Of a stretch of 64,000 bases of DNA, positions 11,901-58,274 are shown in pieces. The position numbers and the translations under genes are program-made. Origin of the DNA: Fimicolochytrium jonesii. Lineage: Eukaryota. Within the stretch, counting starts at the first letter, position 1, and each line of letters begins with the position of its first letter. A model generated the notes under the pieces. The model was given only the letters and a program-made list of their open reading frames with translations, made no database searches and was not told where the DNA came from. Location: assembly GCF_025526975.1 (NCBI RefSeq), contig NW_026515673.1, positions 186,001 through 250,000 on the forward strand. The letters run 5' to 3'.

Positions 11901-12647
11901 TCTAAGTGGTCCGCCCTGCTTTCGAGGCTCATGATGACTTGTTTGTAGCTGTTTGGCAAGCTGTATATCAAGGTAGTCATGATATCGTCTTCGGGTACTG
12001 GTGCGCCGATAGCCTTCAGCTGTTGTGCGAGCTGTCTGACTTTGTTGATGTGGTTTGTGATCGAGTCTGACTCGTTCATAGTAATGGTAAAAAGCTTTTG
12101 ACATAGGAAGAGCTTGCTGGTGAGCCCTTTTCGTTCGTGCACCTCAGCTAGCTTAGACCAGGCTTCCCAAGCCGTGTGAGCTGTATGCACGTGCATAAGC
12201 TGGGTGTCGTTCAGACTGACGCAGATGTATGCCAAAGCCCTCTCAGCCCCCTTTCCCTTCGATGGGTTTGCTGTAGCCATGTCTCCTTCGCCTTCAACAT
12301 CACCATCATCCTAAACTTCCATAGATGGTAGTTATCCCCTGTGAACTTGTCCACCATAAGTTTCGAAGTCTCTGCGTCTCCAGCCATCGTGTGTTCGAGC
12401 TAAGTTTGTCTGTTTCGAGTGTGTGGACACGTTTCGGATAATAGTGTATTGTTGGACAGGTTTTGGGTGTCAAGTAGTGCATATCTCGTTGAGTTGAGCA
12501 CTTGAGCGCGTTTTTGGTCGAAAATTGGTGATTTTGGAAGGATATATGGAGGATAGGGCATACGTAGCAACTGTAGGGGGTTGGGAACGTCTTGAATAGG
12601 ATTTGCGAAGATGGTTTTAGTGATGATAAAGCTGAGGGCTCATAACC

Positions 12648-13267
12648 TATTGAAACCTTAGCTGATATAGGTGTATCTGAGAGGTCACTAAGACTGGTTC
12701 GCCGATAACTGAGGGATGTAGCTGCCCGAAGGGCAGTGTTGTGATGTAGAAGACAGTACTGTGGCTAGAGTGGTGCGATAGAAAGCTGTGTATTGAAGAG
12801 GTTGAAGTGAAGAGACGGGATGGGCAACAGGTCTGCCTTTTATAGGAATCTGGGGCTTCTTTCTTGGGGATTTAGCTAGGTGCTGGGGTGTCCAAAGCAC
12901 CCTCTGAGATCCCCTCAGAACGCCCAAGGCGTCGCTGAGTGCCGCAGTTAAGGTTGGTAAGGTTTGTAAGGTTTTGCCAAGTCTGTGTAGCCTCATAGGT
13001 ACCTGCTGATGCCCCATGGGCGTCCGCCAAGTCCGCGGAAGGTGCTACAGGCTACCACAAGCGCAATTGAGCCCAATCTAGCTACTACAACCCGACCACA
13101 GCTCCATACGGGCACTACAGACCGCTATGAGCTCTAAGAACATCATGAAAGCGCAGTGCTGATGCCTGGATGTCTGGGAAACGGTCCAGACATCTTCAGA
13201 GCCTCCCAACACGCGTCCTAAGTCTTGCAGAGCCTTCTAAGTGCCGCATCTTGATGCTATCTCAATA
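12648..13267 (-). repeat. Copia-A LTR, third copy
   Basis: +4359 copy of 8289-8908. Confidence 0.9.
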
Positions 13268-16200: not shown

Positions 16201-17006
16201 TCGAGTTCTCCTTGCGCCTAGCTTCTTCATTCAGAAGTCTGGCCATCAAGAACTCCATGTCTAAGTGGTCCGCCGTGCTTTCGAGGCTCATGATGACTTG
16301 TTTGTAGCTGTTTGGCAAGCTGTATATCAAGGTAGTCATGATATCGTCTTCGGGTACTGGTGCGCCGATAGCCTTCAGCTGTTGTGCGAGCTGTCTGACT
16401 TTGTTGATGTGGTTTGTGATCGAGTCTGACTCGTTCATAGTAATGGTAAAAAGCTTTTGACATAGGAAGAGCTTGCTGGTGAGCCCTTTTCGTTCGTGCA
16501 CCTCAGCTAGCTTAGACCAGGCTTCCCAAGCCGTGTGAGCTGTATGCACGTGCATAAGCTGGGTGTCGTTCAGACTGACGCAGATGTATGCCAAAGCCCT
16601 CTCAGCCCCCTTTCCCTTCGATGGGTTTGCTGTAGCCATGTCTCCTTCGCCTTCAACATCACCATCATCCTAAACTTCCATAGATGGTAGTTATCCCCTG
16701 TGAACTTGTCCACCATAAGTTTCGAAGTCTCTGCGTCTCCAGCCATCGTGTGTTCGAGCTAAGTTTGTCTGTTTCGAGTGTGTGGACACGTTTCGGATAA
16801 TAGTGTATTGTTGGACAGGTTTTGGGTGTCAAGTAGTGCATATCTCGTTGAGTTGAGCACTTGAGCGCGTTTTTGGTCGAAAATTGGTGATTTTGGAAGG
16901 ATATATGGAGGATAGGGCATACGTAGCAACTGTAGGGGGTTGGGAACGTCTTGAATAGGATTTGCGAAGATGGTTTTAGTGATGATAAAGCTGAGGGCTC
17001 ATAACC

Positions 17007-17462
17007 TATTGAAACCTTAGCTGATATAGGTGTATCTGAGAGGTCACTAAGACTGGTTCGCCGATAACTGAGGGATGTAGCTGCCCGAAGGGCAGTGTTG
17101 TGATGTAGAAGACAGTACTGTGGCTAGAGTGGTGCGATAGAAAGCTGTGTATTGAAGAGGTTGAAGTGAAGCGACGGGATGGGCAACAGGTCTGCCTTTT
17201 ATAGGAATCTGGGGCTTCTTTCTTGGGGATTTAGCTAGGTGCTGGGGTGTCCAAAGCACCCTCTGAGATCCCCTCAGAACGCCCAAGGCGTCGCTGAGTG
17301 CCGCAGTTAAGGTTGGTAAGGTTTGTAAGGTTTTGCCAAGTCTGTGTAGCCTCACAGGTACCTGCTGATGTCCCATGGGGGTCTGCCAAATCCGCGGAAG
17401 GTGCTACAGACTGCCACAAGCTCAAGCAAGCCCAAGTGCCGCGTCTTGATGCTATCTCAATA
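17007..17462 (-). repeat. Copia-A LTR, fourth copy, with ~165-bp internal deletion
   Basis: Same termini; GCCCAA joins directly to GTGCCGC near 17435. Confidence 0.85.
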
Positions 17463-19603: not shown

Positions 19604-20525
19604 CTATATAAGATGCTGTGGGGGTGGCTGGCAGAAGCGAGGGTCTATCGAATGAGGGGCTATGGTCGGTTCTCGGGGAAAATAGGCTGCCGGTCTCAAT
19701 AGTACAAGAAGATTGCTCTTGTTAGAGCATCGTCTTGCCACCATAATATCCAGGTGCTTTGAATGGAGTCCTTGTTCTTGAAGGGGGTTGGGAGTATGAG
19801 TTTGGGTGCGAAAGATCGGGTCGGTAATATCCAACAAAGGTTGACTACAAAACAATACAACGGAGTTATTCAATACTACTCTCAGCTGTTCTTACTAGAT
19901 TCCTGATCAAGCAAGTCCTCTGCGACGTCAGCAAAGTACAAGCCACAAGACTTGGGGCCGTCTTGTCTAAGCTCTCAGTGTCTGTGAGCTTGCCTTGAAA
20001 AGTCCGAAAGGAACTTGAAAAAGTCGTCAGGAGTAGAGAAGTAGCTCTGTTGTGGGTTGGTGTGTTCTGCGTATCGTACAAAATTCAAGGCGAAACAGTC
20101 AGGCTTCTATACACATTTTTGTAGGCTACAGAATTTTGTCAAAGTCCAAACTCTCTACTATATGTCTCTAGAAGAATCAGCTACATCAAGGGATTCTCTT
20201 TTCCTGCAGCAGTCTACGTCGTTTTCGCCTTTTCCATTCGCAATTTCTACGCTGATACAGTCTTATCGCTAATCTTTTCTGTGGTTTTTCTTCAACGTTT
20301 GGCATATACGGCCACTGGAATTGGTTTTCTTGTTTCGCAGTTGATTTTTTCAGCGTTTCGGGCATTGTGAGAGCTTCCGGTTGGTTGAGAGTCACGTCTG
20401 GGGCGCTTTCATGTGTGAGATCTTTACCTACGCCTACATTTTTCTCATGTCAGTCGTATCCGAGGACAAAACATCGTTGTGAGGGCAGGTCTCGGTAAAG
20501 GCAGGTGTGTTAGGTTATTGTCAGA
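19604..20525 (-). repeat. Gypsy-B LTR fragment (partly duplicated at 25522-26325)
   Basis: Reverse-complement similarity to 47960-48912 (GCACCTGGATATTA, GTCCTCGG.TACGACTGACATG blocks). Confidence 0.8.
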
Positions 20526-20529
20526 GTGT

Positions 20530-21345
20530 CAGAAATGGGAGTATGTCAATTTATTTTTGAAGGTTTTGACAGTATTTGACGTTGTCCCAGGTCTTTGACA
20601 TTGCCCCAGTGCCGAAGCTGATTGCCCGACTGTAGCTCTGTCAATGGATACGCGATGTATGCATAACGATCGTCTTTCTGTATGGTAGGACGTGCAAAGT
20701 TTTGCACGGCCTCCAATTTTGAGGGTGCAATAGCCATTGTTCCTCTTCCAGGATATAGCCACAGAATTGAGCATCCATTTACGCTTGGACGGCTTAACAT
20801 AGAGTTTGTGCTCGGTGAGAACAGCCAAAACACTGTCCACATGAGCGATATGCTCCTCGGCAATCTCCGACAAGATTAAGATATCATCCAGGTAAGATAT
20901 GACATACATCATACATCTTCCCCAATATCTTATTGGGTAACCGTTGAAACGTTGCCAGTGCATTCGTTAATCCTATCGGCATAACCAAGTACTCAAAATG
21001 ATCAAACCGCGTCCAAAACGCTGTTTTGTCTATATCGCCCTTGCAAACCAAGAGGTGGTGATACGCATCTTTGATGTCCAACAAAGACTTGAACTTCCTT
21101 CCACATACCCGATCCTGCAGCTCTGCATGATTCGGTAACGGCGTACAATCCTTTATCATTGCTTTGTTCAGCCCACGATAGTCAACGCACATATGGAGAC
21201 TGCCATCGTTTGTCTTAGCAAGTAACACTGCGGCAACCCATGGGCTCTGCCAGTGCTGAACCCATCTGCGCTCAAGCATGAGAGTAACCTTCTCATTAAG
21301 CTCTTTGAGTTCAGCTTTGCTCATATGCCGTAAAGGATTAAAGTC
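20530..21345 (-). pseudogene. Gypsy-A RT fragment (copy 26330-27145)
   Basis: CVDYRGLNK, LDIKDAYH, VMPIGLTNA, YLDD; diverged paralogue of 31370-32180. Confidence 0.9.
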
Positions 21346-21349
21346 TAGT

Positions 21350-21872
21350 GTGTTGTTTACGAAGACCTCGGATGGTGTTTTGCTGACCAGAGGGGACGTT
21401 ATGGGAGTAACTGATCTCAGCTCCGGTGTTGGATAAACATACGGGATGGTGTAAGTTGTAGCGTGCTGAGGAGGTGCATGGGGGCCAGCGGCAGAGAAGT
21501 CACATATGGCGCACTAGCCGGTATAGGGCTAGCTGAGTAATTAGAGTGAGTGCTGTATACTGACGATTGGGTGAGCGGGTTTACTGAGTGGAACGTAGGT
21601 CCGCCTTGTTGAGGAGCTCGATCCTGATTCAAGAGGGAGGTAACCAAGCCTGGCAAATTGGCAATTAGGTCTTCTAGATGAAGAAACCTCTCTTCCTGCT
21701 TGATTGGAATCCATAGGAATGGGTTGATTTCGGTTTTGGGGGGTCCGGCGGTTTGGGCACATCCACATACAGGGTGATGGCATCCTTCAACTCTGCAATA
21801 GTCGGAGAAGACTCCTCCTTCCTCTTCCTTTTCATCCACAAATCCACCAGGCATTTCACGAAGACGGGTAGG
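21350..21872 (-). pseudogene. Copia-C-like gag fragment (copy 27150-27672)
   Basis: MPGGFVDEKEE...RAPQQGGPT..SVNPLTQS matches gag at 40130-40580. Confidence 0.8.
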
Positions 21873-22165
21873 TGTGATGTGGACTACCTTCCACACGGGT
21901 TGTTTAACTGATGTTCGTATACAATAACTACTTTGCTGTAAGGTATTGTAGACGGACTGGGTGTTCGTCGGCTCTGCTATGCGATATGTAGTAAAAGAAC
22001 TACTTGTTGTGCATAGGACCGCGCGACGAGCACTGTTAAAGTACCCGTGAGGTTGGAGTCCACTGGAGAACACTGTTTGGGACATGTCTCGCACACCTGG
22101 CAAGACATGTCTTGCTGACATGTCGTTCTCCAATAAGACCAGACACTCCACATTACACCCCCCCC
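21873..22165 (-). repeat. Gypsy-A 3' LTR (21873-22157, 285 bp) with G8 polypurine tract (copy 27673-27965)
   Basis: TGTAATGTG...CACATCACA termini preceded by GGGGGGGG on the minus strand. Confidence 0.88.
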
Positions 22166-22354
22166 AGATTCTACAACGCGAACCTGCCCAGCAAGCTCAA
22201 GCAGAGTAGAATATGAAGGTGTCCGGGATCGCACCCAGCGCAATCCTTAATGGTCCTTGTCGTCGTCGGTCCAAATAACCATGCAAAAAAGCTATGGCTT
22301 TTTGGCAGAAAGCCATGGCTTTTTCGCTGAAAGCCATGGTTCGCCAACTGGACG

Positions 22355-25300
22355 TGTAATGTGTGTTGGGTTGTCCGGTCTTATTGGAGAACGACATGTC
22401 AGTGAAAGACCTATCGCTGTCTTGGTGGAAGGCCTTCCGACCTGTCAGTGAAAGGCCTTTCGACCTGTCAGTGAAAGGCCTTTCGACCTGTCAGTGAAAG
22501 GCCTCTCCTAAGCACTCAGCCTTACGCCCTTCACGCTCAGACAGTGTTCTCCAGTGGACCCCGACCACATGGGTACTATAACAGTGCTTGTCGCGAGTTC
22601 CTATTCATAACAAGTAGTTCTCTTACTACATACCGATTTGCAGCGCTGGCGAACACCCAGTCCGTCTACAATACCTTACAGCAAAGTAATACGAACATCA
22701 GTTATACAACCCGTGTGGAAGGTAGTCCACATCACATGGTAGCACCACTCGTTTGAACAAAACAAGCTTCCTAGTAGTAAACACGTCGGCAACTTCAGCA
22801 TCTCGAAATTGCGGACGTAGCAATCGTCACAGAACGTCGATACAACACTTCTAGACGATTCAAATAGCCTTCAGGACGTCCAGGACAACGTCCGTCGCAA
22901 CTCCTAAGCTGTTAGGGTTCTTCTTGATCCTCTCAAAGAGCTCTCTAAACTGATAGCTTCAGATCCTGTCTAGGATCAATGTAGCCAAACCCCGCCGACA
23001 TCGGACAGATTTTGGGGATTTTTTGCTCAAAAGAGGGGAAATCTATGCCCAAATTTTGGTTACTGCACACGGCATATACCTGATTCAAGAACCTAGTTGT
23101 TTGTGTGTATTTGCTCGAGGTACTGAGCTATACAACATCAACGGAGTACTTCTGTCCGCATTCTGGACGTATTCGTCTTTGTTTGAGGTTATTCGACCTG
23201 AAAACGAGATTACACTGGCCAGAAGGTCGTCATGAGTAGGTCAACGGGTAGTACAGTTAACAGGAGTGAGGAAACTACTCCTGGAGGTACAGCTGTTATT
23301 ACTGAGATCGTTGCGAAGCCGGAAATGTCGGTTGACGAACCTTGTGTTGAAGTTTGCCTTCCTCGTCCTCCTCAAACGACGGGACCTGTTCCAATGGAGG
23401 GTATCCAGGTCGGTGGACCTCCTCCATCTCCTGCTGGTAACCCGCACGCTACGGCTATGTTGACGATCTCTGTCGAGGAGTTCAACGCCCGAATTAATGC
23501 TGCTCGAGCAGAAGTTCGCGATCAACATGCCGAGGAACATCAGGCTTGACAGGATCGTTTGCGATCTACGTTGGAGCGTGACTCCGCGGTGCGCCATGAT
23601 GTGCTGCAGGATGGGTCGGTGCATCTGTTCTATATCGAGCAGGGTAGACATCATGGTACATGGATCTCACAGCATCCGTTCAATGGCAAACGGCGTGAGG
23701 CCGCTTTCGTTGACACGTTTTTGCAGAAGCATACGGCCTTCATGGTTACTTTTGGTCTTCCGATTGACGACTTTACGTACATGCAGAAGGTCTTGAGCTC
23801 GCTTGAAGGCGACGCACGTACCTGGTTTGACACCGCATGCAGGCTTGACATGCGGAAAGAGGATTTTGAGACGGCTTTCAAACTAGCCTTCTATCCTACA
23901 AACGCGAAAACAAACGCGCTCAATGCTCTGCACCGTATGACTTTTCATAAGTCGATGGACTCATATGTGACGGAGTTCAAACGTATCATTGCCGAGGCAC
24001 AGCGCAACCTGGAGGTTATCACTCCTGACAATTTGAATAACCTGTTCCTTCGTGGTCTTACTCACAATAAGACCAATACCGTCGGCTATGAGATTGCCCA
24101 GTCGTTGTTGCATACGATGGTCGATTATAGGGAGCAACACCCTCTGCTCGCATTTCCATTGATTTGTTTGATGGATCGTGCGCTTAGTTCGTTTGCTGTA
24201 CGTCGCCTCGCCGATAAGGGCACCGACGCAAACGATAAAGCAGTTGCTTCTGGTAGTAGCGCCTAAACGTGCTAATGTCTCTTCTGCCACGGGTACCGCG
24301 GGCAAGAAGGGGGGGAAAGCTAAGAAGGCGGAAGCTGCTAAACCTTACGCACGCCCAGACCTCTCGCACATGAAGTGCTTCGATTGTGGCGAGATGGGTC
24401 ATCGTGCGCGAGATTGTCCTAAGAAGAAGGATAAGAAATCCGACGAGGCTAAGGATAAGCCGCATTGAGATGCTGGTCAGAAAAAGGGTTTTCAGTAGAG
24501 ACGTTTAATAAAGACACCGTTTATTTGTCTCATTGTGCAATGGTGTCCATTGAAGAGGAACTTGAGGCTATACGCCCTGAGTCCGCTGATGGTAGACTGG
24601 TTGATTGTAGCAATACGTCTGCTGCGGGGGCGCGCCTGTGCCGGCCAGACGAGACTGAAACCGTTTTGAAGACTAGGCCTGAAGCACTGCAACTGCAACC
24701 TGATGCGTTGATCGCACGATGTGCATTTGTAGTTCATGGCAAGTAGAATGGCAGGTTTTGTCGTATTCTGATCGATACGGGATGCACAACACTGATGGTA
24801 CGTCAGGGATGGGGTGTCAAAACATGGTTTCCAAACCTATAACCCTAAAATGCCCATTGATGTTGCCTGGGGCGACGACAGCCATACATTCAACCCCAAC
24901 AAGTCATTTTGTGGCGATCTACAGTTGTGGGGAGATGGACGACACTATTCCAGAGAACAGCTTCCATTTGTGGTCGCTCCTCTGCGGGTAGATGTTATTC
25001 TCGGATTGCCATGGATCTATATGCTTGACGATGTTTGTTTCGAGCACATAGAAGATGAAATTCCTGTTCTACGATTTCGTGCGGATGAAGTTGAACATAC
25101 CCTGGTTGCCAGACCAGTAACTAGGAAGTGGGAATCCCAGTCGTCCTGTAATGCGGCCGATCTGCGGTTTTTTGACATCAGAAAAAAGTCTAAACGATTC
25201 AAGGCGGTGATGCCTGAACGAGAAGACTCGAGTGTAGGAGTTGTAACTTATCAGAAGTTGACTCGCTTATCTCGAAAAAAGGTGTATGGGAAGTGTTACA

Positions 25301-25521
25301 TAGCGTTCGCTATGGACATAGAAGCTGCAGTGAATGCGTCACCAGCTTATGTCCCCGCAGATGAGCGCAATCGCGCCGAACCAGAGCCAGAGGTTCAAAT
25401 TAGCGAAGCTACGGGACAGAAGGTTGATTTGGGCGTGCCATTGGATCACCTTCTTTATCCAATGTTAGAGAAGTACATGGATAGTTTGTTTGTTGAGCAC
25501 GCAGAGTTGCCGCCCGATCGA
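22355..25521 (+). mobile_element. Gypsy-A 5' part: LTR 22355-22736, PBS, gag, protease; truncated by the duplication junction
   Basis: TG...CA LTR, PBS TGGTAGCACC at 22737, gag LEGDARTWF, knuckle CFDCGEMGHRARDC, protease ILIDTGC. Confidence 0.9.
22432..22504 (+). repeat. 23-bp tandem repeat (CCTTTCGACCTGTCAGTGAAAGG) x ~3 inside the LTR (copy 28232-28304)
   Basis: Read directly; absent from the 285-bp LTR variants. Confidence 0.85.
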
Positions 25522-28500
25522 TTAGAGCATCGTCTTGCCACCATAATATCCAGGTGCTTTGAATGGAGTCCTTGTTCTTGAAGGGGGTTGGGAGTATGAG
25601 TTTGGGTGCGAAAGATCGGGTCGGTAATATCCAACAAAGGTTGACTACAAAACAATACAACGGAGTTATTCAATACTACTCTCAGCTGTTCTTACTAGAT
25701 TCCTGATCAAGCAAGTCCTCTGCGACGTCAGCAAAGTACAAGCCACAAGACTTGGGGCCGTCTTGTCTAAGCTCTCAGTGTCTGTGAGCTTGCCTTGAAA
25801 AGTCCGAAAGGAACTTGAAAAAGTCGTCAGGAGTAGAGAAGTAGCTCTGTTGTGGGTTGGTGTGTTCTGCGTATCGTACAAAATTCAAGGCGAAACAGTC
25901 AGGCTTCTATACACATTTTTGTAGGCTACAGAATTTTGTCAAAGTCCAAACTCTCTACTATATGTCTCTAGAAGAATCAGCTACATCAAGGGATTCTCTT
26001 TTCCTGCAGCAGTCTACGTCGTTTTCGCCTTTTCCATTCGCAATTTCTACGCTGATACAGTCTTATCGCTAATCTTTTCTGTGGTTTTTCTTCAACGTTT
26101 GGCATATACGGCCACTGGAATTGGTTTTCTTGTTTCGCAGTTGATTTTTTCAGCGTTTCGGGCATTGTGAGAGCTTCCGGTTGGTTGAGAGTCACGTCTG
26201 GGGCGCTTTCATGTGTGAGATCTTTACCTACGCCTACATTTTTCTCATGTCAGTCGTATCCGAGGACAAAACATCGTTGTGAGGGCAGGTCTCGGTAAAG
26301 GCAGGTGTGTTAGGTTATTGTCAGAGTGTCAGAAATGGGAGTATGTCAATTTATTTTTGAAGGTTTTGACAGTATTTGACGTTGTCCCAGGTCTTTGACA
26401 TTGCCCCAGTGCCGAAGCTGATTGCCCGACTGTAGCTCTGTCAATGGATACGCGATGTATGCATAACGATCGTCTTTCTGTATGGTAGGACGTGCAAAGT
26501 TTTGCACGGCCTCCAATTTTGAGGGTGCAATAGCCATTGTTCCTCTTCCAGGATATAGCCACAGAATTGAGCATCCATTTACGCTTGGACGGCTTAACAT
26601 AGAGTTTGTGCTCGGTGAGAACAGCCAAAACACTGTCCACATGAGCGATATGCTCCTCGGCAATCTCCGACAAGATTAAGATATCATCCAGGTAAGATAT
26701 GACATACATCATACATCTTCCCCAATATCTTATTGGGTAACCGTTGAAACGTTGCCAGTGCATTCGTTAATCCTATCGGCATAACCAAGTACTCAAAATG
26801 ATCAAACCGCGTCCAAAACGCTGTTTTGTCTATATCGCCCTTGCAAACCAAGAGGTGGTGATACGCATCTTTGATGTCCAACAAAGACTTGAACTTCCTT
26901 CCACATACCCGATCCTGCAGCTCTGCATGATTCGGTAACGGCGTACAATCCTTTATCATTGCTTTGTTCAGCCCACGATAGTCAACGCACATATGGAGAC
27001 TGCCATCGTTTGTCTTAGCAAGTAACACTGCGGCAACCCATGGGCTCTGCCAGTGCTGAACCCATCTGCGCTCAAGCATGAGAGTAACCTTCTCATTAAG
27101 CTCTTTGAGTTCAGCTTTGCTCATATGCCGTAAAGGATTAAAGTCTAGTGTGTTGTTTACGAAGACCTCGGATGGTGTTTTGCTGACCAGAGGGGACGTT
27201 ATGGGAGTAACTGATCTCAGCTCCGGTGTTGGATAAACATACGGGATGGTGTAAGTTGTAGCGTGCTGAGGAGGTGCATGGGGGCCAGCGGCAGAGAAGT
27301 CACATATGGCGCACTAGCCGGTATAGGGCTAGCTGAGTAATTAGAGTGAGTGCTGTATACTGACGATTGGGTGAGCGGGTTTACTGAGTGGAACGTAGGT
27401 CCGCCTTGTTGAGGAGCTCGATCCTGATTCAAGAGGGAGGTAACCAAGCCTGGCAAATTGGCAATTAGGTCTTCTAGATGAAGAAACCTCTCTTCCTGCT
27501 TGATTGGAATCCATAGGAATGGGTTGATTTCGGTTTTGGGGGGTCCGGCGGTTTGGGCACATCCACATACAGGGTGATGGCATCCTTCAACTCTGCAATA
27601 GTCGGAGAAGACTCCTCCTTCCTCTTCCTTTTCATCCACAAATCCACCAGGCATTTCACGAAGACGGGTAGGTGTGATGTGGACTACCTTCCACACGGGT
27701 TGTTTAACTGATGTTCGTATACAATAACTACTTTGCTGTAAGGTATTGTAGACGGACTGGGTGTTCGTCGGCTCTGCTATGCGATATGTAGTAAAAGAAC
27801 TACTTGTTGTGCATAGGACCGCGCGACGAGCACTGTTAAAGTACCCGTGAGGTTGGAGTCCACTGGAGAACACTGTTTGGGACATGTCTCGCACACCTGG
27901 CAAGACATGTCTTGCTGACATGTCGTTCTCCAATAAGACCAGACACTCCACATTACACCCCCCCCAGATTCTACAACGCGAACCTGCCCAGCAAGCTCAA
28001 GCAGAGTAGAATATGAAGGTGTCCGGGATCGCACCCAGCGCAATCCTTAATGGTCCTTGTCGTCGTCGGTCCAAATAACCATGCAAAAAAGCTATGGCTT
28101 TTTGGCAGAAAGCCATGGCTTTTTCGCTGAAAGCCATGGTTCGCCAACTGGACGTGTAATGTGTGTTGGGTTGTCCGGTCTTATTGGAGAACGACATGTC
28201 AGTGAAAGACCTATCGCTGTCTTGGTGGAAGGCCTTCCGACCTGTCAGTGAAAGGCCTTTCGACCTGTCAGTGAAAGGCCTTTCGACCTGTCAGTGAAAG
28301 GCCTCTCCTAAGCACTCAGCCTTACGCCCTTCACGCTCAGACAGTGTTCTCCAGTGGACCCCGACCACATGGGTACTATAACAGTGCTTGTCGCGAGTTC
28401 CTATTCATAACAAGTAGTTCTCTTACTACATACCGATTTGCAGCGCTGGCGAACACCCAGTCCGTCTACAATACCTTACAGCAAAGTAATACGAACATCA

Positions 28501-31500
28501 GTTATACAACCCGTGTGGAAGGTAGTCCACATCACATGGTAGCACCACTCGTTTGAACAAAACAAGCTTCCTAGTAGTAAACACGTCGGCAACTTCAGCA
28601 TCTCGAAATTGCGGACGTAGCAATCGTCACAGAACGTCGATACAACACTTCTAGACGATTCAAATAGCCTTCAGGACGTCCAGGACAACGTCCGTCGCAA
28701 CTCCTAAGCTGTTAGGGTTCTTCTTGATCCTCTCAAAGAGCTCTCTAAACTGATAGCTTCAGATCCTGTCTAGGATCAATGTAGCCAAACCCCGCCGACA
28801 TCGGACAGATTTTGGGGATTTTTTGCTCAAAAGAGGGGAAATCTATGCCCAAATTTTGGTTACTGCACACGGCATATACCTGATTCAAGAACCTAGTTGT
28901 TTGTGTGTATTTGCTCGAGGTACTGAGCTATACAACATCAACGGAGTACTTCTGTCCGCATTCTGGACGTATTCGTCTTTGTTTGAGGTTATTCGACCTG
29001 AAAACGAGATTACACTGGCCAGAAGGTCGTCATGAGTAGGTCAACGGGTAGTACAGTTAACAGGAGTGAGGAAACTACTCCTGGAGGTACAGCTGTTATT
29101 ACTGAGATCGTTGCGAAGCCGGAAATGTCGGTTGACGAACCTTGTGTTGAAGTTTGCCTTCCTCGTCCTCCTCAAACGACGGGACCTGTTCCAATGGAGG
29201 GTATCCAGGTCGGTGGACCTCCTCCATCTCCTGCTGGTAACCCGCACGCTACGGCTATGTTGACGATCTCTGTCGAGGAGTTCAACGCCCGAATTAATGC
29301 TGCTCGAGCAGAAGTTCGCGATCAACATGCCGAGGAACATCAGGCTTGACAGGATCGTTTGCGATCTACGTTGGAGCGTGACTCCGCGGTGCGCCATGAT
29401 GTGCTGCAGGATGGGTCGGTGCATCTGTTCTATATCGAGCAGGGTAGACATCATGGTACATGGATCTCACAGCATCCGTTCAATGGCAAACGGCGTGAGG
29501 CCGCTTTCGTTGACACGTTTTTGCAGAAGCATACGGCCTTCATGGTTACTTTTGGTCTTCCGATTGACGACTTTACGTACATGCAGAAGGTCTTGAGCTC
29601 GCTTGAAGGCGACGCACGTACCTGGTTTGACACCGCATGCAGGCTTGACATGCGGAAAGAGGATTTTGAGACGGCTTTCAAACTAGCCTTCTATCCTACA
29701 AACGCGAAAACAAACGCGCTCAATGCTCTGCACCGTATGACTTTTCATAAGTCGATGGACTCATATGTGACGGAGTTCAAACGTATCATTGCCGAGGCAC
29801 AGCGCAACCTGGAGGTTATCACTCCTGACAATTTGAATAACCTGTTCCTTCGTGGTCTTACTCACAATAAGACCAATACCGTCGGCTATGAGATTGCCCA
29901 GTCGTTGTTGCATACGATGGTCGATTATAGGGAGCAACACCCTCTGCTCGCATTTCCATTGATTTGTTTGATGGATCGTGCGCTTAGTTCGTTTGCTGTA
30001 CGTCGCCTCGCCGATAAGGGCACCGACGCAAACGATAAAGCAGTTGCTTCTGGTAGTAGCGCCTAAACGTGCTAATGTCTCTTCTGCCACGGGTACCGCG
30101 GGCAAGAAGGGGGGGAAAGCTAAGAAGGCGGAAGCTGCTAAACCTTACGCACGCCCAGACCTCTCGCACATGAAGTGCTTCGATTGTGGCGAGATGGGTC
30201 ATCGTGCGCGAGATTGTCCTAAGAAGAAGGATAAGAAATCCGACGAGGCTAAGGATAAGCCGCGTTGAGATGCTGGTCAGAAAAAGGGTTTTCAGTAGAG
30301 ACGTTTAATAAAGACACCGTTTATTTGTCTCATTGTGCAATGGTGTCCATTGAAGAGGAACTTGAGGCTATACGCCCTGAGTCCGCTGATGGTAGACTGG
30401 TTGATTGTAGCAATACGTCTGCTGCGGGGGCGCGCCTGTGCCGGCCAGACGAGACTGAAACCGTTTTGAAGACTAGGCCTGAAGCACTGCAACTGCAACC
30501 TGATGCGTTGATCGCACGATGTGCATTTGTAGTTCATGGCAAGTAGAATGGCAGGTTTTGTCGTATTCTGATCGATACGGGATGCACAACACTGATGGTA
30601 CGTCAGGGATGGGGTGTCAAAACATGGTTTCCAAACCTATAACCCTAAAATGCCCATTGATGTTGCCTGGGGCGACGACAGCCATACATTCAACCCCAAC
30701 AAGTCATTTTGTGGCGATCTACAGTTGTGGGGAGATGGACGACACTATTCCAGAGAACAGCTTCCATTTGTGGTCGCTCCTCTGCGGGTAGATGTTATTC
30801 TCGGATTGCCATGGATCTATATGCTTGACGATGTTTGTTTCGAGCACATAGAAGATGAAATTCCTGTTCTACGATTTCGTGCGGATGAAGTTGAACATAC
30901 CCTGGTTGCCAGACCAGTAACTAGGAAGTGGGAATCCCAGTCGTCCTGTAATGCGGCCGATCTGCGGTTTTTTGACATCAGAAAAAAGTCTAAACGATTC
31001 AAGGCGGTGATGCCTGAACGAGAAGACTCGAGTGTAGGAGTTGTAACTTATCAGAAGTTGACTCGCTTATCTCGAAAAAAGGTGTATGGGAAGTGTTACA
31101 TAGCGTTCGCTATGGACATAGAAGCTGCAGTGAATGCGTCACCAGCTTATGTCCCCGCAGATGAGCGCAATCGCGCCGAACCAGAGCCAGAGGTTCAAAT
31201 TAGCGAAGCTACGGGACAGAAGGTTGATTTGGGCGTGCCATTGGATCACCTTCTTTATCCAATGTTAGAGAAGTACATGGATAGTTTGTTTGTTGAGCAC
31301 GCAGAGTTGCCGCCCGATCGAAGTGAAGATAACTTCCATATCGAACTGGAGCCTGGTACGAAACCAGTCTTTAATCCTTTACGGCATATGAGCAAAGCCG
31401 AACTCAAAGAGCTGAATGAGAAGGTTACCTCTCATGCTCGAGCGCGGTTGGATTCAACACTCGCAGAGCCCGTGGGGCGCGGCAGTGTTATTCGCCAAGA

Positions 31501-34698: not shown

Positions 34699-34945
34699 AC
34701 TTAGCAGTAGTCGGCGGAGGAAGCAGATGACTGAGCGAACTCTATGTAGTGTGCAATGCTGTACTGTGAAGTATGTATTGTCTTGTGTAGAAAAGTCTAA
34801 AGTGTAAAGAGGACGCGAGGTCTGAAGGGGAAGAAACGAGTGAAGTCCCGTACGCAGAAGCGTGGCAAAAGCGGGAGGGGAGTCACGTGAGGAAATAAAC
34901 TATGGGAACTCTAACCGGGGACTTGGGAGGATGATACCCCCAACA
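34699..34945 (-). repeat. Copia-C 3' LTR
   Basis: Direct repeat of 40935-41181 (roughly 19 mismatches by eye); adjacent PPT. Confidence 0.92.
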
Positions 34946-35209
34946 CCCCCACTCAAACTCACGAGTCTATCTAAGTGAAAGATAGATCGAAACAATGAGT
35001 ACAATGGTGCGGCCGTACGCGAAAAACGGGCGGACGTTGGGTGAATAGCTATGACTAAAAATGAAAGAAATGAAAGAGTAAAATGAAAGAAGGGGGGAAA
35101 CGCCGCGAGTATAAAACAAGAGACAGCTGTCAGTTGCCCTAGAGAGGTAAGACCAACGTTCCCCATACTCAACTACCGTATCCCAGACTACCACACGATA
35201 CGCAAAACA

Positions 35210-35845
35210 ATGGCCAACGGAGGCAAGAACGGCGGGAGTGGCAAGAAGAAGCAAATGGCCCGTAAGACGGTGAGACCAGCAGCCCCTCCAGCTGCACCTC
35301 CTCCGGGACCCTCACGACCGACAACGCGCTCTACGCGTGCATCGTCCGCAGCGTCCGCAAGCGACTCTTCGATGTCGAAAGCCCGAGTTAGAGAAGCTCT
35401 TCGATTGGCGACGGAGGTATCGAAGTTGAGGTACCGCAAGGATAACCATGAGAACCTCGCGAAGCACCTGGCGTTTATGAAGGCGAAACTGGATCGATCG
35501 AAGCGAAAGAAGGGGTCGTTCGAAGCATTGACGGAGGAGGCAGACTACCTTGGATGTAAGGCAGTCTCGGAGTCGCGATATAAGGCAAAAGGCGGCATAT
35601 CAAAAGAAAAGATGAAAGATGCAAAGCGCCGCAGTGATGCGGTCAAGAGACGGGAGCGAGACAAGATGATGAAGCGACTCCAGTACTTGCGAAAGCACAT
35701 GGATGATTCGTCTTCAAGTGAGGATGGAGACGGGGACGGAAATGGCGGGGGAGGTGGTCCAGGGGGTCCGCCTGGTGGAGGCGAAGCCGGAGCCGGTGGA
35801 GGCCCCGGTGCCAGGGCAGCGGCAGCTATCAAGGTGGCGGGTTAA
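35210..35845 (+). CDS. Antisense accessory ORF of copia-C, 211 aa, basic, H3-tail-like KQMARKT motif
   Basis: Uninterrupted ATG-TAA ORF between pol stop and PPT; start context AAAACAATGG; TATAAAA at ~35110. Confidence 0.7.
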   Translation: MANGGKNGGSGKKKQMARKTVRPAAPPAAPPPGPSRPTTRSTRASSAASASDSSMSKARVREALRLATEVSKLRYRKDNHENLAKHLAFMKAKLDRSKRKKGSFEALTEEADYLGCKAVSESRYKAKGGISKEKMKDAKRRSDAVKRRERDKMMKRLQYLRKHMDDSSSSEDGDGDGNGGGGGPGGPPGGGEAGAGGGPGARAAAAIKVAG

Positions 35846-35937
35846 GGTGCCGAAGTCGTATGTAGTGCCCAGAAGCCGTCCCGGTATGGGTGTTCCATAT
35901 GTCTCATTCGGACGTAGTCGTCGCCCGCTGTCTATTG

Positions 35938-38900
35938 CTAGCGACACGTCCTTCTTGAATTGCTTGAATGTGTCTCGGGAGGAAAGGGCTTCGTAAAGTA
36001 ATCAGCCAGTTGTTCCTGCCTCGCGGTGTTGGGGAGTACGACGTCTTTCTTCGCCACGCCATCGCGTAGCTTGTGGTAGCGTACGTCGATGTGTTTGGAG
36101 CGTTGCGGAATAGCCGAGTTGGCAATCTCGCGGGCGCTCTGATTGTCGATGTGGAGTGGCGTAGGGTCCTTGATGTTGCCGTATTCGTCGGCGAAGACCT
36201 CTGCGGTGATCGAGCGGAGCCGGATGACCTCGTTGTAACCGAGCGGTGTGGCAATATACTCAGCTTCCGTGGAGCTGAGAGCTACGCACTTCTGCTTGGT
36301 GCTTTTCCAGTAGATAAGCTGGCCGTTGAAGAAGCTGGCGATGCCCGTGGTAGATTTGCGGTCGTTGACATCGTCTGCGTAGGATGCGTCGGTATAGACG
36401 CGAAGTCCAGCTTGATCTGAATGACCGGACTTGTAGGTAAGCTCGAAGGTGCGGGTACCTTTCAGGTAGCGCATGATGCGAAGTACATCATTCCAGTTGG
36501 CTTGGGTAGGAGCTGAGACTTGACGTGCGACGAAGCCGACGGCAGTTGAAATATCCCAGCGCCAGGTAATGGATGCCCACGTGAGGGCCCCCACTGCTTC
36601 CTGGTAGACAAGCTCGCTATGAAAAGGGGGGCTTGCGGAGGCTGGTCGGGTACGCGCAGAGACGGCGCACGGCGTAGAGACCGCGGTAGCGTTTTGTTGT
36701 CCAAATCGTTCGAGTAAACCGTCAATATAGGTAACATTGCTGATTTTGAGTTGGTTCCCTGACGGCGAGAGCTGGTAATCGAAGAACAGACCTAGGCAGT
36801 TCTTGATGGGACTGAGATCCGTACAGTTGAAATGAGAACATAGTTCACCTTTCACTTGCTTGACGTGTACGGGAAAGCAGCAGGCGATGAAATGGTCCAC
36901 ATAGATAAGGAGCATCTGGAGAGCGTCCAGAGTGCGCGTCGTTGTCGCGTAGCGATAGAAGACGCAAGGGCAGTTCTTTAACGGGGTAAAGCCAAGAGAA
37001 CTGAGGGTTTCACAAAGAGTACGGTACCAGAGAAGCGGAGATTGCTTCAGACCGTATAGAGCTTTGCGTAGGAGGTATACCCAGTCTGCGCGCGGTTTCT
37101 GCGGATCTTTGTAGCCTTGAAATTGCTCAACATAGACGGGTCCGTCGATATCGCTGCGTAAGAACGCGTTGGGGACGTCAAGTTGATGGATTTCCATACC
37201 AAGAGAGACGGCAATGGAGAGGAATAGGCGAAGAACTGACATGGGTAGGGTTGGTGCGTAGGTGTTGTTATAATCAATACTCTTGGATTGACGAAAACCT
37301 TGAACTACACGGTGGCCCTTGAATTTCTTGAAAGTACCGTCCGGATTGAAGATTTGACGAAGTACCCAAGTACTACCGAGTACGCGCTGATTTTGCGGAC
37401 GGGGTACGAGCTCCCAAGTTCCGTTATCAACTAGAGCTTGGAACTCTTTATCAGCTGCGAGCTTGAAGTCAGCTGTTTGAGGGGAGGCCATTGCTTGTCG
37501 CCAGGTCATAGTGACGGATTGAGGAGTGTCTTTGGTACGCGTGTTGAAGGCGTTTGAGAGGGCATCAATAGTTCGGGCGTTGAAAGCGTCTGGACGAGAC
37601 TCCCAGATATCCAATGCTTCAGTCTCAATGAGATCAGAGCGTGGTTGCCAGGTAGGGGTAGTAAAACCAACCCACTTGACGAGGTATTCCTTTTGGACGT
37701 TCTTGCTGCGGCGTTGACGTTCAGAAAGGATGTGTTCGATAGGGAACTCCTCTTGCGAGGTGGGAGCATCTTTCAGAAGATCTAGGAGAGCAGGATCTTG
37801 ACGAAGGTGCTCAGGGAGTCCAGTAGATTTGTCGAAGCGAACATCACGTGAGACGGCGACAGTGTCGCGAACTGGATCCCAGACATAGTAACCTTTGGTG
37901 CCTTGTTGGTGACCATAGCCCACTAGGTACATCTTGGTAGCACGATTTGCCATCTTTTCCCGGCCCTTGGGTGGAACAACAGTGTGCGTGAGACATCCGA
38001 GCTTGCGCAGATGCGCGATGCTCGGGCGGCGACCGGTAAGGAATTCGGAGCGCGATTTGGCATCCGAGGATGCAACTGAATGCGGGTAGAGGTTGTGCAG
38101 GTAAGAGACAGCCTCCAGGATGTACAGCCAGAGCTTGCGGGGAAGGTGAGTGTCTGGGAAGATGGTGCGTACGCGGTCCAGCAACGTCCGATTGAGGCGC
38201 TCTGCTTTTCCGTTTTGTTGACTAGAATACGCAACAGTAGACTCATGGGTCATCCCATTGTTGTGTAGGTACAACGTGAGCGCGCCAGTGTATTCTCCTC
38301 CGCTATCCGTATGTAGGATCTTGAGGGAGACGCCAGTTTGATTCTTGAGCCACTTATGAAAGATCATAAACCTTGCGGTAATAGTGGATGCCTCCTTGTC
38401 CTTGATGGAGTAGGTACGGGCGAAATCGGAGCCGTTGTCCAGAAACGCGAGACTGTAGCGCTCTCCGTTGATGCCGTAGATCCGAAATGGACCTTGTAAA
38501 TCGCTGTGAATCAGCTCGCCGGGTTTGTGTGGCGGGGATGTCGATTTAGGGAAGGTGAGGCGGGTAGCTTTGCCGAGAGCGCATGGATCGCAGCGTGCGC
38601 CGGAGTCCGGCGTAGCCCCCACTGAAGGCCAATCCTCTACTATCTTAGGCATAACCGGGAGAATGTGGTTTCCAGGGTGTCCAAGACGTTGATGCAGAAG
38701 TTGGGGGGTTATGGAAGCGACCAGTGCATGTGCATTGGGCTTGTAGGTAGTAACCCGTCCTTCTAAACAGTACGCGTCGCCTTTGCGGATCACCATCATG
38801 AGTAGGTGTCGGTCGGTATTGAACGTGACGACGTCGGTGGGGTGAAAGGAGACGGTAACGCCGTTATCAGTGCATTCAGCAACAGATATAAGCGGCTGGG

Positions 38901-39335
38901 CAGCACTGGGAACCAATACAACATCGCAAAGAGCGAGAACGTTGCCGCCGGACGTAGGTTGGATAAGTACGGTACCCTTCTTTTGAGAGGTAATGGTAGT
39001 CGAATCCACGAGTCCAATAAGGCGTTGGTAGTCTTGAAGAGAAGATGGATCTAGATCCTCAATATAGGGGGTCATATGATCCGTACAACCGGAATCCACG
39101 TTCGCCTTGAAGAGGCGGACGTCGTGGTTGGCTGGTTGGACTTGAACGTGCATGGCATAAGCCATGGAGGCTGCAGCGGGTGCGTCCTGCTTGGTTTTCA
39201 TGTTCTTGTCCATGATATCCTTGACAGCTTTGTAAGTAATGCAGTTTTCCGACTTGTGGCCGTCCCTCTGGCAGTATTTGCACTGGGGAGGCTTCTTGGT
39301 TGCGTCAGAAGACGAGCTTGGGTAGAGGGAGTGCC
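35938..39335 (-). CDS. Copia-C pol: Zn knuckle, protease, integrase, chromodomain, RT, RNase H
   Basis: CKYCQRDGHKSENC in frame upstream of the 1091-aa ORF; VDSGCTDHMT; HQRLGHP; HSDLQGP, HTDSGGEY, QNGKAERLNR; EYLVKWVGF; ALYGLKQSP; YVDH (mutated YVDD); YTDASY, SSTEAEY, SKHIDVRYH. Confidence 0.93.
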
Positions 39336-40845
39336 TCTAGAGCCGCCAGTCTTGGATTTGTTCTTCCTCTTCTGAGGTAGAGTAGAAGTAACGTGGGGAG
39401 CGGATGCGCCCGACTGAGGTGTACTCGGGGTCTTCTCGTTGAGCTGGGCGGCTATACAAATCGCGGCTTCTTGAGAAGGACTAAGTCTATCGTCGTACTG
39501 AGCCTGAGCAGTGATCAGGGTACTAAGATTCTTAGGAAGGGCTTGAAGAAAATCGGCACAGAGCACGTATTCCGGGAACCCGGGGAGTTGTCCAGCCAAA
39601 AGGTTGAAGTGGGCGACAAATTCGGTTAAACCTTGATGGTTAATTGACTTGGGCTTCAGAGCGCGCAGTCTGTGAAGAACTTGCGGCAGATTAGTCCCGG
39701 GAATGAAGCGCCTCAACATCGCGGAGCGTAATCCGAGTCGCGGGGGCAGTCCATAGACGTCTTGAATATCATGCCAGGAAATTATGGAGGAGCGCTCGTT
39801 TTCAGGAAGGCTTTTCCACCACTGGAGAGCTGGTCCAGTGAGCGCGTTGATAACGAAGTCTACGCATTCGGAAGGCGAAATCATCTCGTACTTCATAATC
39901 ACGTCAATGTGATCTAGGAACCCTTGAAGCTTGATAACATTGGGGTCGCCTTTGTAGGTGCCGAGTTTACTAAGGATAGTGTTGATGAAGACCTTGGAAG
40001 CTGATTTGCCGGCCGTAGGGGGTGTTACGGGAGTAACAGATCTCACAGATGCACTTTCGTGTGGAATTTTAGCGAAAGGAGGGCTTTGAGAACGAGGTTG
40101 AAAGTAAGGATGTCGTTCCGGGGCTTTGTAAGCGTATGGGACGGAGTAGGCCATAGCGCGCTGACGGGGCGCATGGGGTGCCGGCGACACAGAGGTCATG
40201 TATGGCATGTTTGCCTGGATAGGGCTAGTCGAATAATGAGAACGAGTGCTGTTCACAGGCGACTGAGTGAGCGGGTTCACGGAGGGGACAGTAGGTCCGC
40301 CCTGTTGAGGCGCTCGGCCCAAATTCAAGAACGAGGTAACCAATCCAGTCAGAGTGGCTGTTTGATCCTTCATTTGACGCATCTCCTCTTCCTGCTTGAC
40401 AGGTGTAGGTTCTCGCTGAATGGAATCCATCAGGAAGGGGTCGGTTCCGGTATGTCCGCGTGATTCAGGCGCATCCACATATGGTGTGGTTGCGTCTTTC
40501 CATTCTGCAATAGTAGCAGAGAGATCCTCTTTCCTCTTCTTGATCCACAAATTCACCAGGCATTTTGTAAGGCGGGGTAGGTGTTGGTTCACTGCGTAAG
40601 TCGGCATGACGGGCTACGCCTTGATTAAGCGGAGTACGTGAGTCAATGCCAGAGCGCTGATTAATAGATTCAGAACTCTTAACAGGGGGTTGTTGAACGT
40701 TCTTTCCTCCTCCTCTAGTAGCCGCAGGTAGTGGACCCAGGAGAGCTCCTCCTTGGGACCGCGTGTGGTGAGCGGAGGGCTTGCCGGCTGTCACTGCAGC
40801 TGCGTAGCCCTTCTGAGGTTGGGTTGTTGAATCCTTAGGTGGCAT
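39290..40845 (-). CDS. Copia-C gag, frameshifted near 40480 and near 39320
   Basis: ORFs 40465..40845 and 39198..40607; capsid-like LTGPALQWW and FLQALPKNL. Confidence 0.75.
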
Positions 40846-40934
40846 GGTGCTTTCTAAGAGAGCGGTGACTGGAGACCGTGAGTTCTTTATCCTGGAACGT
40901 CCGCTAGTTGCGGGCGGAGCCAGGGCTCATAACC

Positions 40935-41181
40935 ACTTAGCAGTAGTCGGCAGAGGAAGCAGATGACTGAGCAAACTCTATGTTGTGTGAGATGTAGTAC
41001 TGTGAAGAATGTATTGTCCTGTGTAGAAAAGTCTAAAGTGTAAAGAGGACGCGAGGTCCGAAGGGGAAGAAAAGAGTGAAGTCCCGTACGCGGAAGCGTG
41101 GCGTAAGCGGGAGGGGAGTCACGTGAGGAAATAAACTACGGGAAACCTAACCGGGGACTCGGGAGGATGATACCTCCAACA
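40935..41181 (-). repeat. Copia-C 5' LTR
   Basis: Followed by the PBS on the minus strand. Confidence 0.92.
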
Positions 41182-51310: not shown

Positions 51311-51910
51311 GTAGGTGATGGTTCACTTCGTTGTTGCACTTGACGGGGTACGCCTTGAATAGGCGGAGTACGTGAGTCAGTGCCAGAGAGCCAATTAGAA
51401 GATTCAGAGCTCCTAAGAGCTGGTTGAACTTTTTTTCCTCCTCCTCTGGTTGCTGGCGGTAGTGAGTCCAGGAGTGCTCTCCCTTGGGAGCGCATATTTG
51501 GGGTAGACGGCTTGCCGGCTGCTAAGGCAGCAGAGCATGCTTTCTGAGTTTGGTTTGTTGAATCCTTTGGCTGCATGGTGCTTTCTGAAAGAACCGGCGA
51601 GGGGACACCGAGCTCTCCATTCTAGATTCGTACGCAAATAGCAGGCGAAGCCAGGGCTCATAACCTGTTAGCGGTAGTTGGCAAAGGAATATGGATAGAG
51701 AACGGAACCTGTGTATGGGGGACGAAGCCCTATATTGTATGAAGTTATACAGTCTTGTCTGAAGACAGAAAGGAGGACGCGAGGTCCAGGGTAGTAAGAA
51801 AAGGGAGAAGTCATGTACCCAGAAGCATGGCGTAAGCGGGAGTGAAGTCACGTGAGGAAATAAACAATGGGAACGCTAACCGGGGACTCGGGAGGATGAT
51901 ACCTCCAACA
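51311..51910 (-). mobile_element. Copia-C relative: 5' LTR 51666-51910, PBS, gag start
   Basis: TGTTGGAGG...CTAACA LTR, GGTTATGAGCCCT, MQPKDSTNQTQK versus MPPKDSTTQPQK at 40845. Confidence 0.88.
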
Positions 51911-51964
51911 GTCTCCTCTGACATTACACTGAGCATGCACCGAATACAAAAAGGATCTCATCCA

Positions 51965-52851: not shown

Positions 52852-54952
52852 TCATTTGCCAGAAGCAATCACGAAGTCAACCCAATCTTTCCACCTCCGG
52901 TCCCACACAATTTTCGCCGTTCGCTGCTCCGCACGAGTCAGGCCCGAGAAGGTGATTCCGTTGAGGGAAAGTTGCTTCAATGAGCGAAGATCAAGCGACT
53001 CGAATGCCATGTACACCTGGTAGTAGTCCGGCGTCACACCTTCATAGCCTAGGTTGATAAAGTGACGATTTCCATTACATCTTTCATGTGCTTATGAAGC
53101 ACTTTGTAGGCAAGGCCGCGGCGCTCATGTACTTACCATAGAGCATAGGATCGTCCGGAGCCAACGTCACTTGTACACCGCTTAGTAGCAGGTCAATGAC
53201 TGGATGCTCTCGCAAATCCTTGACGTAGCCCAACATTTGGTTGCTAAGGAAAACTGGTCAGTAAGCCTGCTCGCCGATCTTCCGATCTTCGGACCGTGGC
53301 CTTGAGTTGAGAATAAAAAAGGTGTGTCGTTACCTAATCGGGGCGACTTCGACTGCTATATTCTGGTCGATGACGCGCTTGATGAGACCGGGGTGTCGGG
53401 ACAAAGCAATACCGTGCCCGATGCGTTTTGTTCCGAGAAGCAACGCATCAACAAGATTCGCATCTGGCGCGGGCCCACAGCGTTGAGTCTCGCCGGCATG
53501 CAGGACAAGGGGAAGTGAGACGCCCGCCCGTTTGGCGGTGCGCTGGCCTTGTACGAGGGTTTGAAGCACTTCGTCCAGCGAACGAGTCTGGTAGAGAGAA
53601 GAGGTTGATTTCACCCCACAAGCGACAGGTCGCGGCGACCGACCCCGTTGATTCGCCGCTTCACATAACAATACGTTTCTAGACTTACCACTTCATGTCC
53701 AACCAAATCGAGCGCGACGATTTGATCAGGGTGGGATTTGCGATATTGAATCGCTTCGCCTATGGATGCAGCAATCACGCTATTGTCCAGCGATCGGACC
53801 TCTTGCCACACAAACCTTAAATCCTGAAAGTCGGGGTGGGTCTGCTTGAACTTTGCGACGATTCGGCGTACGCTGCGCAGCACAGCCGAGAATGGCTTGG
53901 TGTCACCGTTTGCAAGGTACGTTTCCCATTTGAACATGCGGATCTCGACCTGGGCATTGAGATGGGTTAGAGTGGGCAGGAGTCGAGCGGTGCGGAGTTA
54001 CGTACATAAAGTATGCCGTCTTCATAGAACTGCTGAATCAGTCGCCCTATGTATGCTTCGAACATGGGGTCATAGCGGAGAATGGACCCTAGCATCTCAA
54101 ACGACATGAGGAATTGGGCCCACGCAGCATCGTCGTTCTTGAATATGCTAGGGACGAAAGATTACCTTCCATATCAGCGCTATTCTCGAAACTCGTAAAC
54201 TTACTCCCGAATAACACTATTTTGAAGCTCCAAATGACTGTCATAGGCGTTGGCGCCACCGGGAAAAGCATCACGAACTTCTTTGCATGTTGCCCATCCC
54301 TCATCTGGGGGCAACCCTGAGGATGAACTGGCGAACTTGAAGAAAGCGAACTTCTCTTTCCTTGCCACCGCTTGATCAAATGTTGGGACCGTTTTCTCCT
54401 CATATCTATGGATATACCGAATGAGCAATGAATAGCAGACAGCAGAAGCGCCCAAATCGATGCGCTTTCGATATGTTACCTCACGAAGCAGGTGCTTCCG
54501 TGCTCTCCTTCCACCGTGGTGTTTATCAACCACTTCATGTCAACCATCGCCTCCAAATGCCCATGTAAGATCCCGCCTTTTGGCATTTGCCTTAGCAGCG
54601 TGTAGAGTTCGGATTCCTCCATCAATGGCTTGGCGACGGGGAACCGCAGGTGAGGGGGAAACGTGCCTGAGACCTGGAACGCGAGGGACTCCGTTGAACG
54701 GATTCTGGCCAGAACTTCATCCGCTTTTTGCTCCTTCTCCGACAATATGATACTTCGATCAAAGCGTGTTTCCAGATCCAGCGAGGAGAGCGTGCTGCGG
54801 GACGAGGACTCCACAGAGTCCACAATGTTGGCAATTGACCGGGTTGTCAGCAATGGCCAAATGAAGTATAGGGCAACAGCGGCAGCCACACTCTTTTCCC
54901 ACGGGCTCCACCGCGCGGGCGAGCGGTATATCCGCGCCCATTGGGTTGCCAT
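52852..54952 (-). CDS. ADA2: Adenosine deaminase, ADA2/CECR1/ADGF subfamily, multi-exon
   Basis: MPKGGILHGH, DGILY|VEIR, DLVGHE, LHAGET, NLVDALLLGTKRIGHG, EVAPISNQ, PDDP across GT-AG introns; N-terminal hydrophobic segment. Confidence 0.92.
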
Positions 54953-55171
54953 TATGGAAGGTAGGAAGGTAGGGAGGTAAGCAAGGGGGGCAAAGCGAAA
55001 TTCTGGCGGGGGCGTGAACAGAGCCTTGACAGCTTTTTTCCAGTTTTTGCTGTTTTGTGGTGTCACGCCGTCGGACTCGGATGAACGCGTCGAAATGTTG
55101 TCGAAACGTTGTCAGACGTCCTCGCATTTCAGCAACCCTCACACACATCAAGCGCGGAAACTGTCCACGCC

Positions 55172-58118: not shown

Positions 58119-58274
58119 TTCGCATCTCGTAATGTACGATACCCTACACCCAAACATACACCTCCCCGCTCCTCCCCTCACATACCTCATGTACCCCAAC
58201 TGACAAAATCTTTGTAAATACAAAGGAAAGTGGAGACATATCCCCGCATATTGAATGTCCCGCATCTAAGTGCC

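Follow-up and report, generated by a model that had tools for sequence, protein, structure and literature searches.

Antisense open reading frames (ORFs) situated between pol and the 3' LTR, known as aORF-3R, have been recorded in several LTR retrotransposons, including maize Grande (gene23), rice RIRE2, Retand, PvRetro13 and the Boty element of Botrytis (brtn) (PMC7264820, PMC11963269). In the available parts of these and a further report, the ORFs occupying this slot come from plant elements and Botrytis Boty, and their function is unknown (PMC7264820, PMC11963269, PMC8365987). Anti-silencing by transposons is best known from VANC (PMC6719617, PMC13547354). Histone mimicry has been described for viruses and host enzymes, and the sequence 163-ARKT-166 of G9a is methylated and binds HP1 (PMC6028506); H3K9-like motifs are also common among writer and reader partners (PMC10611923). 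Chromodomains of copia elements were described, as of 2009, for diatom CoDi-A only (PMC2774666), and they are not mentioned in the available part of a survey of fungi (PMC3248453). Group I chromodomains are defined by three aromatic cage residues (PMC3605345). The function of LTR-retrotransposon antisense accessory genes is still an open question and few transposon anti-silencing proteins are known.

In this study, a 64-kb stretch of DNA from Fimicolochytrium jonesii (64,000 nucleotides, hereafter the window) was analyzed, focusing on the ORF at 35210-35845. From sequence comparison, this ORF can be regarded as a real, conserved accessory gene of known kind, carried by an unusual copia lineage. 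The element that hosts it is 6.5 kb long, lies on the minus strand and has LTRs of 247 nt. Its parts are as follows:

34699..34945, minus strand: 3' LTR, 247 nt, 92.3% identical to the 5' LTR (19 differences) by repeat comparison
34946..34954, minus strand: polypurine tract (PPT) adjoining the 3' LTR
35938..39321, minus strand: Ty1/copia pol with protease, integrase, SH3, chromodomain, RT and RNase H, the RT motif being YVDH
37594..37740, minus strand: chromodomain at the integrase C-terminus, between integrase and RT (Pfam Chromo, E 2.8e-4, below the cut-off)
39198..40845, minus strand: gag, disrupted across several frames, with a Ty3-capsid-like domain
40923..40934, minus strand: primer-binding site (PBS) adjoining the 5' LTR
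40935..41181, minus strand: 5' LTR

The order of protease, integrase, RT and RNase H, the RVT_2 domain, the LTRs, the PBS and the PPT are all those of a copia element, and the PBS is presumably of the copia type that uses part of initiator tRNA-Met. No target-site duplication was found at the 34699-41181 element. Both LTRs end in GT, and a related third LTR at 51660-51912 ends in the usual CA; taken together, the GT ends and the lack of a target-site duplication suggest that the element may be recombinant. The lesions that the original prediction had placed in gag and RT were confirmed, with the frame broken in 5' gag and again at the gag/pol junction, and probably also at the RNase H end, and with YVDH in the RT where three relatives have YVDD; the chromodomain and the Ty3-type gag had gone unmentioned. 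This copy of the element is dead. A Cys/His cluster in the N-terminal part of gag (40465-40520, minus strand), which is kept in a related fragment near 21760-21800, is possibly an extra zinc site.

The nearest RT was that of P0003 (54% identity over 415 columns, with pol about 50% identical), an element protein with the same domain set in one frame. In an RT tree built on 41 of 120 rows, the element grouped with P0003, P0008 and P0007 in a clade of four at support 100, and paired with P0003 at 88. The chromodomain matched CBX8, CDY, Chp1 and HP1 in the PDB (E 4e-5 to 1e-3). By alignment, its cage positions are F, W and F, compared with Y, W and Y in P0003 and P0008 and W, F and F in P0007, and the three aromatic cage residues of group I (HP1-like) chromodomains are thus present here. 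The combination of copia pol, Ty3-capsid-like gag and chromodomain was observed in the window (35938-40845), P0003, P0048 and P0105. P0015, P0019 and P0020 also carry a chromodomain, and the carriers are spread over three or more positions in the RT tree.

Elsewhere in the window, nested retrotransposon pieces were found in two near-perfect tandem duplications, one with about three copies of a 4359-nt unit (3917-17435) and the other with two copies of a 5800-nt unit at 99.98% (19722-31321); both could reflect either recent amplification or an assembly artefact. A short array of 23-nt repeats lies inside the duplicated unit (22379-22530 and 28179-28330). The CpG observed/expected ratio was 0.89-1.21 in the elements and host genes of 29350-64000, and this absence of depletion gives no sign of methylation-driven decay in that region. 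Intron-containing host genes were identified at 53300-64000, including an adenosine-deaminase-like gene, a MYND finger gene and a Glyco_hydro_15-domain gene, the last of which we take to be phosphorylase kinase-like. Two host genes at 53-64 kb look ciliary to us, presumably ZMYND10 and possibly a CASC1-like gene, as would suit a flagellated fungus; a PDB search with the latter found nothing.

The antisense ORF lies in a 992-nt gap that separates pol from the 3' LTR, on the strand opposite to pol. Two features were recorded there:

35110..35116, plus strand: TATAAAA, candidate promoter element 100 nt 5' of the ORF, not recoverable in P0003
35210..35845, plus strand: antisense accessory ORF of 211 aa, from ORF reading, chance tests and homologues

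The original prediction of an intact 211-aa antisense ORF between pol and the 3' LTR was borne out in its coordinates and in the layout of the protein, which runs from an N-terminal tail through a Pro/Ser linker and a basic helical region to an acidic/Gly tail. The first ATG is preceded by an A-rich context, and the protein is strongly basic, with 45 K/R within residues 1-165. When the gap was base-shuffled 5000 times, an ATG ORF of at least 211 codons never arose, and a stop-free stretch of the ORF's length arose 7 to 45 times in 5000, depending on the null model. No second copy of the ORF was found within the 64-kb window. The TATAAAA claimed about 100 bp upstream is present, and TATA boxes are uncommon in the window (about 1-2% per 150 nt); the related element gives it no backing, as the approximately 78 codons ahead of the inferred P0003 start cannot encode TATAAA. 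The openness of the ORF despite the lesions in gag and RT had also been offered as support. From the 2-3 frame breaks in 4.9 kb, simple arithmetic gives a probability of 0.68-0.77 that 636 nt remain intact with no selection. An open frame therefore gives no indication of selection after insertion, and this argument was dropped.

A full HMMER search of 1.84 billion representative proteins with the ORF protein returned P0123 as its sole match (E 3.7e-8, 31% identity over residues 59-197), and a two-sequence profile of P0123 and the ORF led to the identification of P0127 (E 2.4e-8, 7995 candidates scored). In the alignment of the three sequences (A3), one shared block lies around L-R-Y-R-K-D-x-x-E-x-L-x-x-H (residues 73-86) and another near G115; a charged helix and the acidic/Gly end are also common to all three. 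P0123 and P0127 are known as proteins alone, apart from their genomic context, and as called they start after the N-terminal tail, so they are silent on the motif that it contains. AlphaFold2 (AF2) run on the three sequences gave four helices with disordered ends (mean pLDDT 68.5, pTM 0.49), from which, together with A3, two features were derived:

35348..35716, plus strand: predicted four-helix core, residues 47-169
35705..35842, plus strand: acidic, then Gly-rich disordered tail; both homologues end likewise

The homologue and AlphaFold checks that had been suggested therefore yielded two protein homologues and a four-helix model, and no clear fold match. Foldseek with the model returned no match at E 0.001, and the best VIA-align match reached Z 6.8 with generic helical bundles, a result that excludes no family. 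Pfam gave nothing above the cut-off for the ORF protein, and sequence searches of the PDB gave coiled-coil or linker matches only. P0002, a match from a word-index search, was rejected as a homologue because it matched in composition only. That the ORF is an accessory gene encoded by the element, as originally claimed, is supported by P0123 and P0127 and by the counterpart inferred in P0003.

Locus scans gave no hit for the ORF in prokaryote genomes; viral contigs yielded no locus, and metagenomes yielded one, a decayed plant-like copia. A pol scan of prokaryote genomes gave 32 distant copia loci, and no ORF homologue was found among the 33 copia loci from the scans that were examined (best E 0.5). 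A 151-nt straw-metagenome contig covers 35425-35573 with 7 substitutions; by our own codon reading, 4 of the 6 listed substitutions would be synonymous, and a 1-base deletion lies 15 nt from the contig end, so that the contig is weak evidence on coding constraint either way. Its apparent joint across a skip of 188 nt, supported by 30 letters of Gly-rich sequence, was set aside. As a separate observation, four diverged H3-like genes (L034-L037), apparently intron-containing and with long unusual extensions, were present on contigs binned into a bacterial genome and are probably eukaryotic contamination.

The N-terminal tail of the ORF protein contains the histone-like feature:

35249..35281, plus strand: H3K9-like motif KQMARKTVRPA, residues 14-24, from the translation and its inferred conservation in P0003
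35264..35266, plus strand: candidate methyl-lysine K19, within ARKT (residues 17-20)

KQMARKT occupies residues 14-20, and residues 1-23 include 7 K/R and no acidic residue. Residues 1-46 have no secondary structure in the AF2 model (pLDDT 48-66), and the ARK[ST] motif thus falls in a disordered region. Among 20,000 shuffles of the ORF protein, ARK[ST] occurred in 4.8%, a 5/7 identity in 1.3% and K-x-x-A-R-K-[ST] in 0.6%, before correcting for other histone sites and the large number of ORFs scanned. On the ORF alone, the case for the H3-like motif is modest.

Further evidence came from the relatives. The read-through past RNase H is 338 aa in P0003 and 264 aa in P0007, and 22 of the 25 closest relatives end within 14-31 residues of it. 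Because a long protein tail constrains the opposite strand, the P0003 tail was decoded in antisense, the resulting evidence being a degenerate decoding from one protein rather than from DNA. In one frame, the core pattern was compatible at one site (1 of 500 shuffles; one other site in 154,630 control residues), and K-Q-x-A-R-K-[ST] was compatible 42 codons upstream of the core (13 of 400 local shuffles, and 0 of 400 with the following V). Even when the motif was not prespecified, the best 11-residue match from residues 1-60 was KQMARKTVRPA (17.6 bits, 0 of 250 local shuffles), and of the 53 tail 8-mers only 2 were compatible at that site, each of them in register and falling on the motif. When residues 1-170 were matched in 14-residue windows against the entire P0003 tail, the top two matches were the core and the motif, in colinear order; none of 1949 whole-tail shuffles and 1 of 1922 block shuffles reached their joint score of 31.8 bits, with the null computed over two of the three frames. 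These tests were designed after the core match had been seen; the tail motif itself had been named beforehand in the original prediction. Nine of the ten compatible motif codons in P0003 need a different third base, which indicates that the match is not shared DNA and points to conservation of the protein, and a start Met would fit at the spacing seen in the ORF.

Several comparisons limit how far the decoding can be taken. The whole-protein alignment of the ORF with the decoded P0003 tail was not significant (58.8, shuffle maximum 63.6), the core alone was reached in 6 of 200 shuffles, and a cruder run-length test gave 6 of 60. The best windows of P0123 and P0127 in the P0003 tail scored 14-16 bits at a site different from that of the ORF's match, so single windows of such score can be noise. 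The flanks of the motif fit poorly and the neighbouring K12-K13 do not fit. In the motif itself, H for R18, R for K19 or I for T20 could also be read. In most codons the decoding does not fix the middle base, and K19 may therefore be R in P0003. Neither the core nor the H3-like motif was found in any of the 3 frames of the P0007 read-through tail, and the short tail of P0008 gave no core signal. The C-terminal 264 aa of P0007 are Pro/Ser-rich and may hide a different antisense gene. We infer that P0003 keeps the same antisense gene with the same motif. On the back-decoded P0003 protein, the H3-like motif looks conserved and seems to be under selection rather than due to chance. The earlier caution that a seven-residue match could be fortuitous holds for the ORF alone (1-5%), and the joint P0003 match makes conservation look likelier.

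We tentatively propose, with somewhat less than even confidence, that the product of the antisense gene works as an H3K9 mimic that blunts host heterochromatin silencing of the element, that is, as a host-directed decoy. In the predicted sequence of steps, the basic clusters would bring the protein to the nucleus, a host H3K9 methyltransferase would methylate K19 in the disordered tail, and the K19-methylated tail would occupy HP1-type chromodomains or the methyltransferase itself, in the manner of the ARKT of G9a. Through its basic helical core the protein would be tethered to DNA or RNA of the element, or would dimerise, and the effect would so stay local. It is similarly tentative that the lineage encodes both an H3K9me reader, in its integrase, and its own H3K9 mimic, with the methylated mimic stripping or redirecting chromodomains so that the element could live unsilenced in heterochromatin. 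Against mimicry, ARKS/T motifs are common in basic proteins, one published mimic claim is disputed (PMC10833455), the anti-silencing known from transposons is family-specific and not a broad pathway block (PMC6719617), and the motif was not seen in P0007, nor in P0123 and P0127 as called.

Other functions of the same protein have to be weighed. The product may be a real accessory factor whose conserved basic motif serves in nuclear localisation or nucleic-acid binding, as in Rev/Tat-like proteins or RNA-export helpers, the likeness to H3 being incidental. We consider this credible but unlikely. The abundance of K and R would suit it, the conserved stretch continues as VRPA, which is not H3K9 sequence, and the antisense accessory proteins known so far are found in the nucleus, their function being unknown (PMC7264820); however, basic residues would suffice for such a signal, whereas in P0003 K-Q, A and T also fit and K12-K13 do not. 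It is rather unlikely that the element's own integrase chromodomain is what binds the methylated tail, with the protein acting in masking of that domain, in nuclear carriage of the pre-integration complex or in tethering to chosen sites. Both the element and its clade carry a chromodomain with three cage aromatics, and motif and reader are found together in this element and, by inference, in P0003. Nevertheless, the chromodomain copia loci L013 and L016 have no ORF homologue in the 0.56 and 1.1 kb after pol, respectively, so the chromodomain does not require the ORF, and methylation would be needed before or during particle assembly.

Two further explanations were considered. A by-product reading, in which the ORF or its motif belongs to a purine-rich spacer or an antisense RNA and resembles a histone by chance, would fit the uninformative intactness and the chance level of the motif alone, which rises over several histone sites and many ORFs. 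It appears improbable in view of the protein-level homologues at about 30% identity, the ORF length in excess of the shuffles, and the joint P0003 match with its third-base changes. A decayed captured gene for histone H3 or CenH3, with tail and histone fold, would explain why the tail motif comes first, as in H3, and short stretches of the core presumably recall, to our eye, helix motifs of H3. This origin is nevertheless very improbable: the A3 profile matched H3-like histone-fold exons with a probability of 0.2%, none of 9 pairwise alignments beat the shuffles (best 84 of 1000), and no histone appeared in Pfam, in PDB sequence searches or among the fold-search matches listed, the fold comparison being based on the three-sequence model. 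If the H3K9 mimic reading is true, encoding a mimic of its own would let an element whose chromodomain targets it to H3K9me chromatin cope with the silencing at its landing site, and the gene offers a peptide-level test on one lysine. In the literature searched, outside which lay subscription papers and supplements, no transposon-encoded histone mimic was found, nor any description of this copia lineage; supplements could hold unlisted copia aORFs.

Compared with known systems, the gene most resembles aORF-3R, with which it shares its place and orientation, a candidate promoter of its own, a basic protein, maintenance across related elements and an unknown function; for the last but one, the inferred counterpart in P0003 is the instance found, and none was found in P0007. 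Most aORF-3R cases reported in the available parts of the sources belong to Ty3/gypsy elements from plants and ascomycetes, whereas the ORF described here belongs to a chromodomain Ty1/copia element, has no TRP28/transposase-28, SMC or other Pfam domain, and contains an H3K9-like motif. As in the H3K9 mimic of G9a/GLP and in viral mimics such as influenza NS1 (PMC6028506), ARKT lies in an unstructured N-terminal region, and K-Q precedes it as at residues 4-5 of H3. Unlike these, the ORF product is a candidate mimic encoded by a retrotransposon and has no homology to them beyond the motif. VANC of VANDAL DNA transposons is likewise a transposon accessory protein for which a role against the silencing of its own family has been proposed (PMC6719617, PMC13547354), and no similarity between it and the ORF was found. 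VANC recognises DNA motifs, reduces DNA methylation and has a link to MAIN-like proteins, whereas the route proposed for the ORF product would be a histone-like peptide. Finally, the element resembles the diatom CoDi-A Ty1/copia elements in having the copia domain order and a chromodomain at the integrase C-terminus (PMC2774666). Set beside CoDi-A by description, the lineage reported here adds a Ty3-capsid-like gag and an antisense gene.
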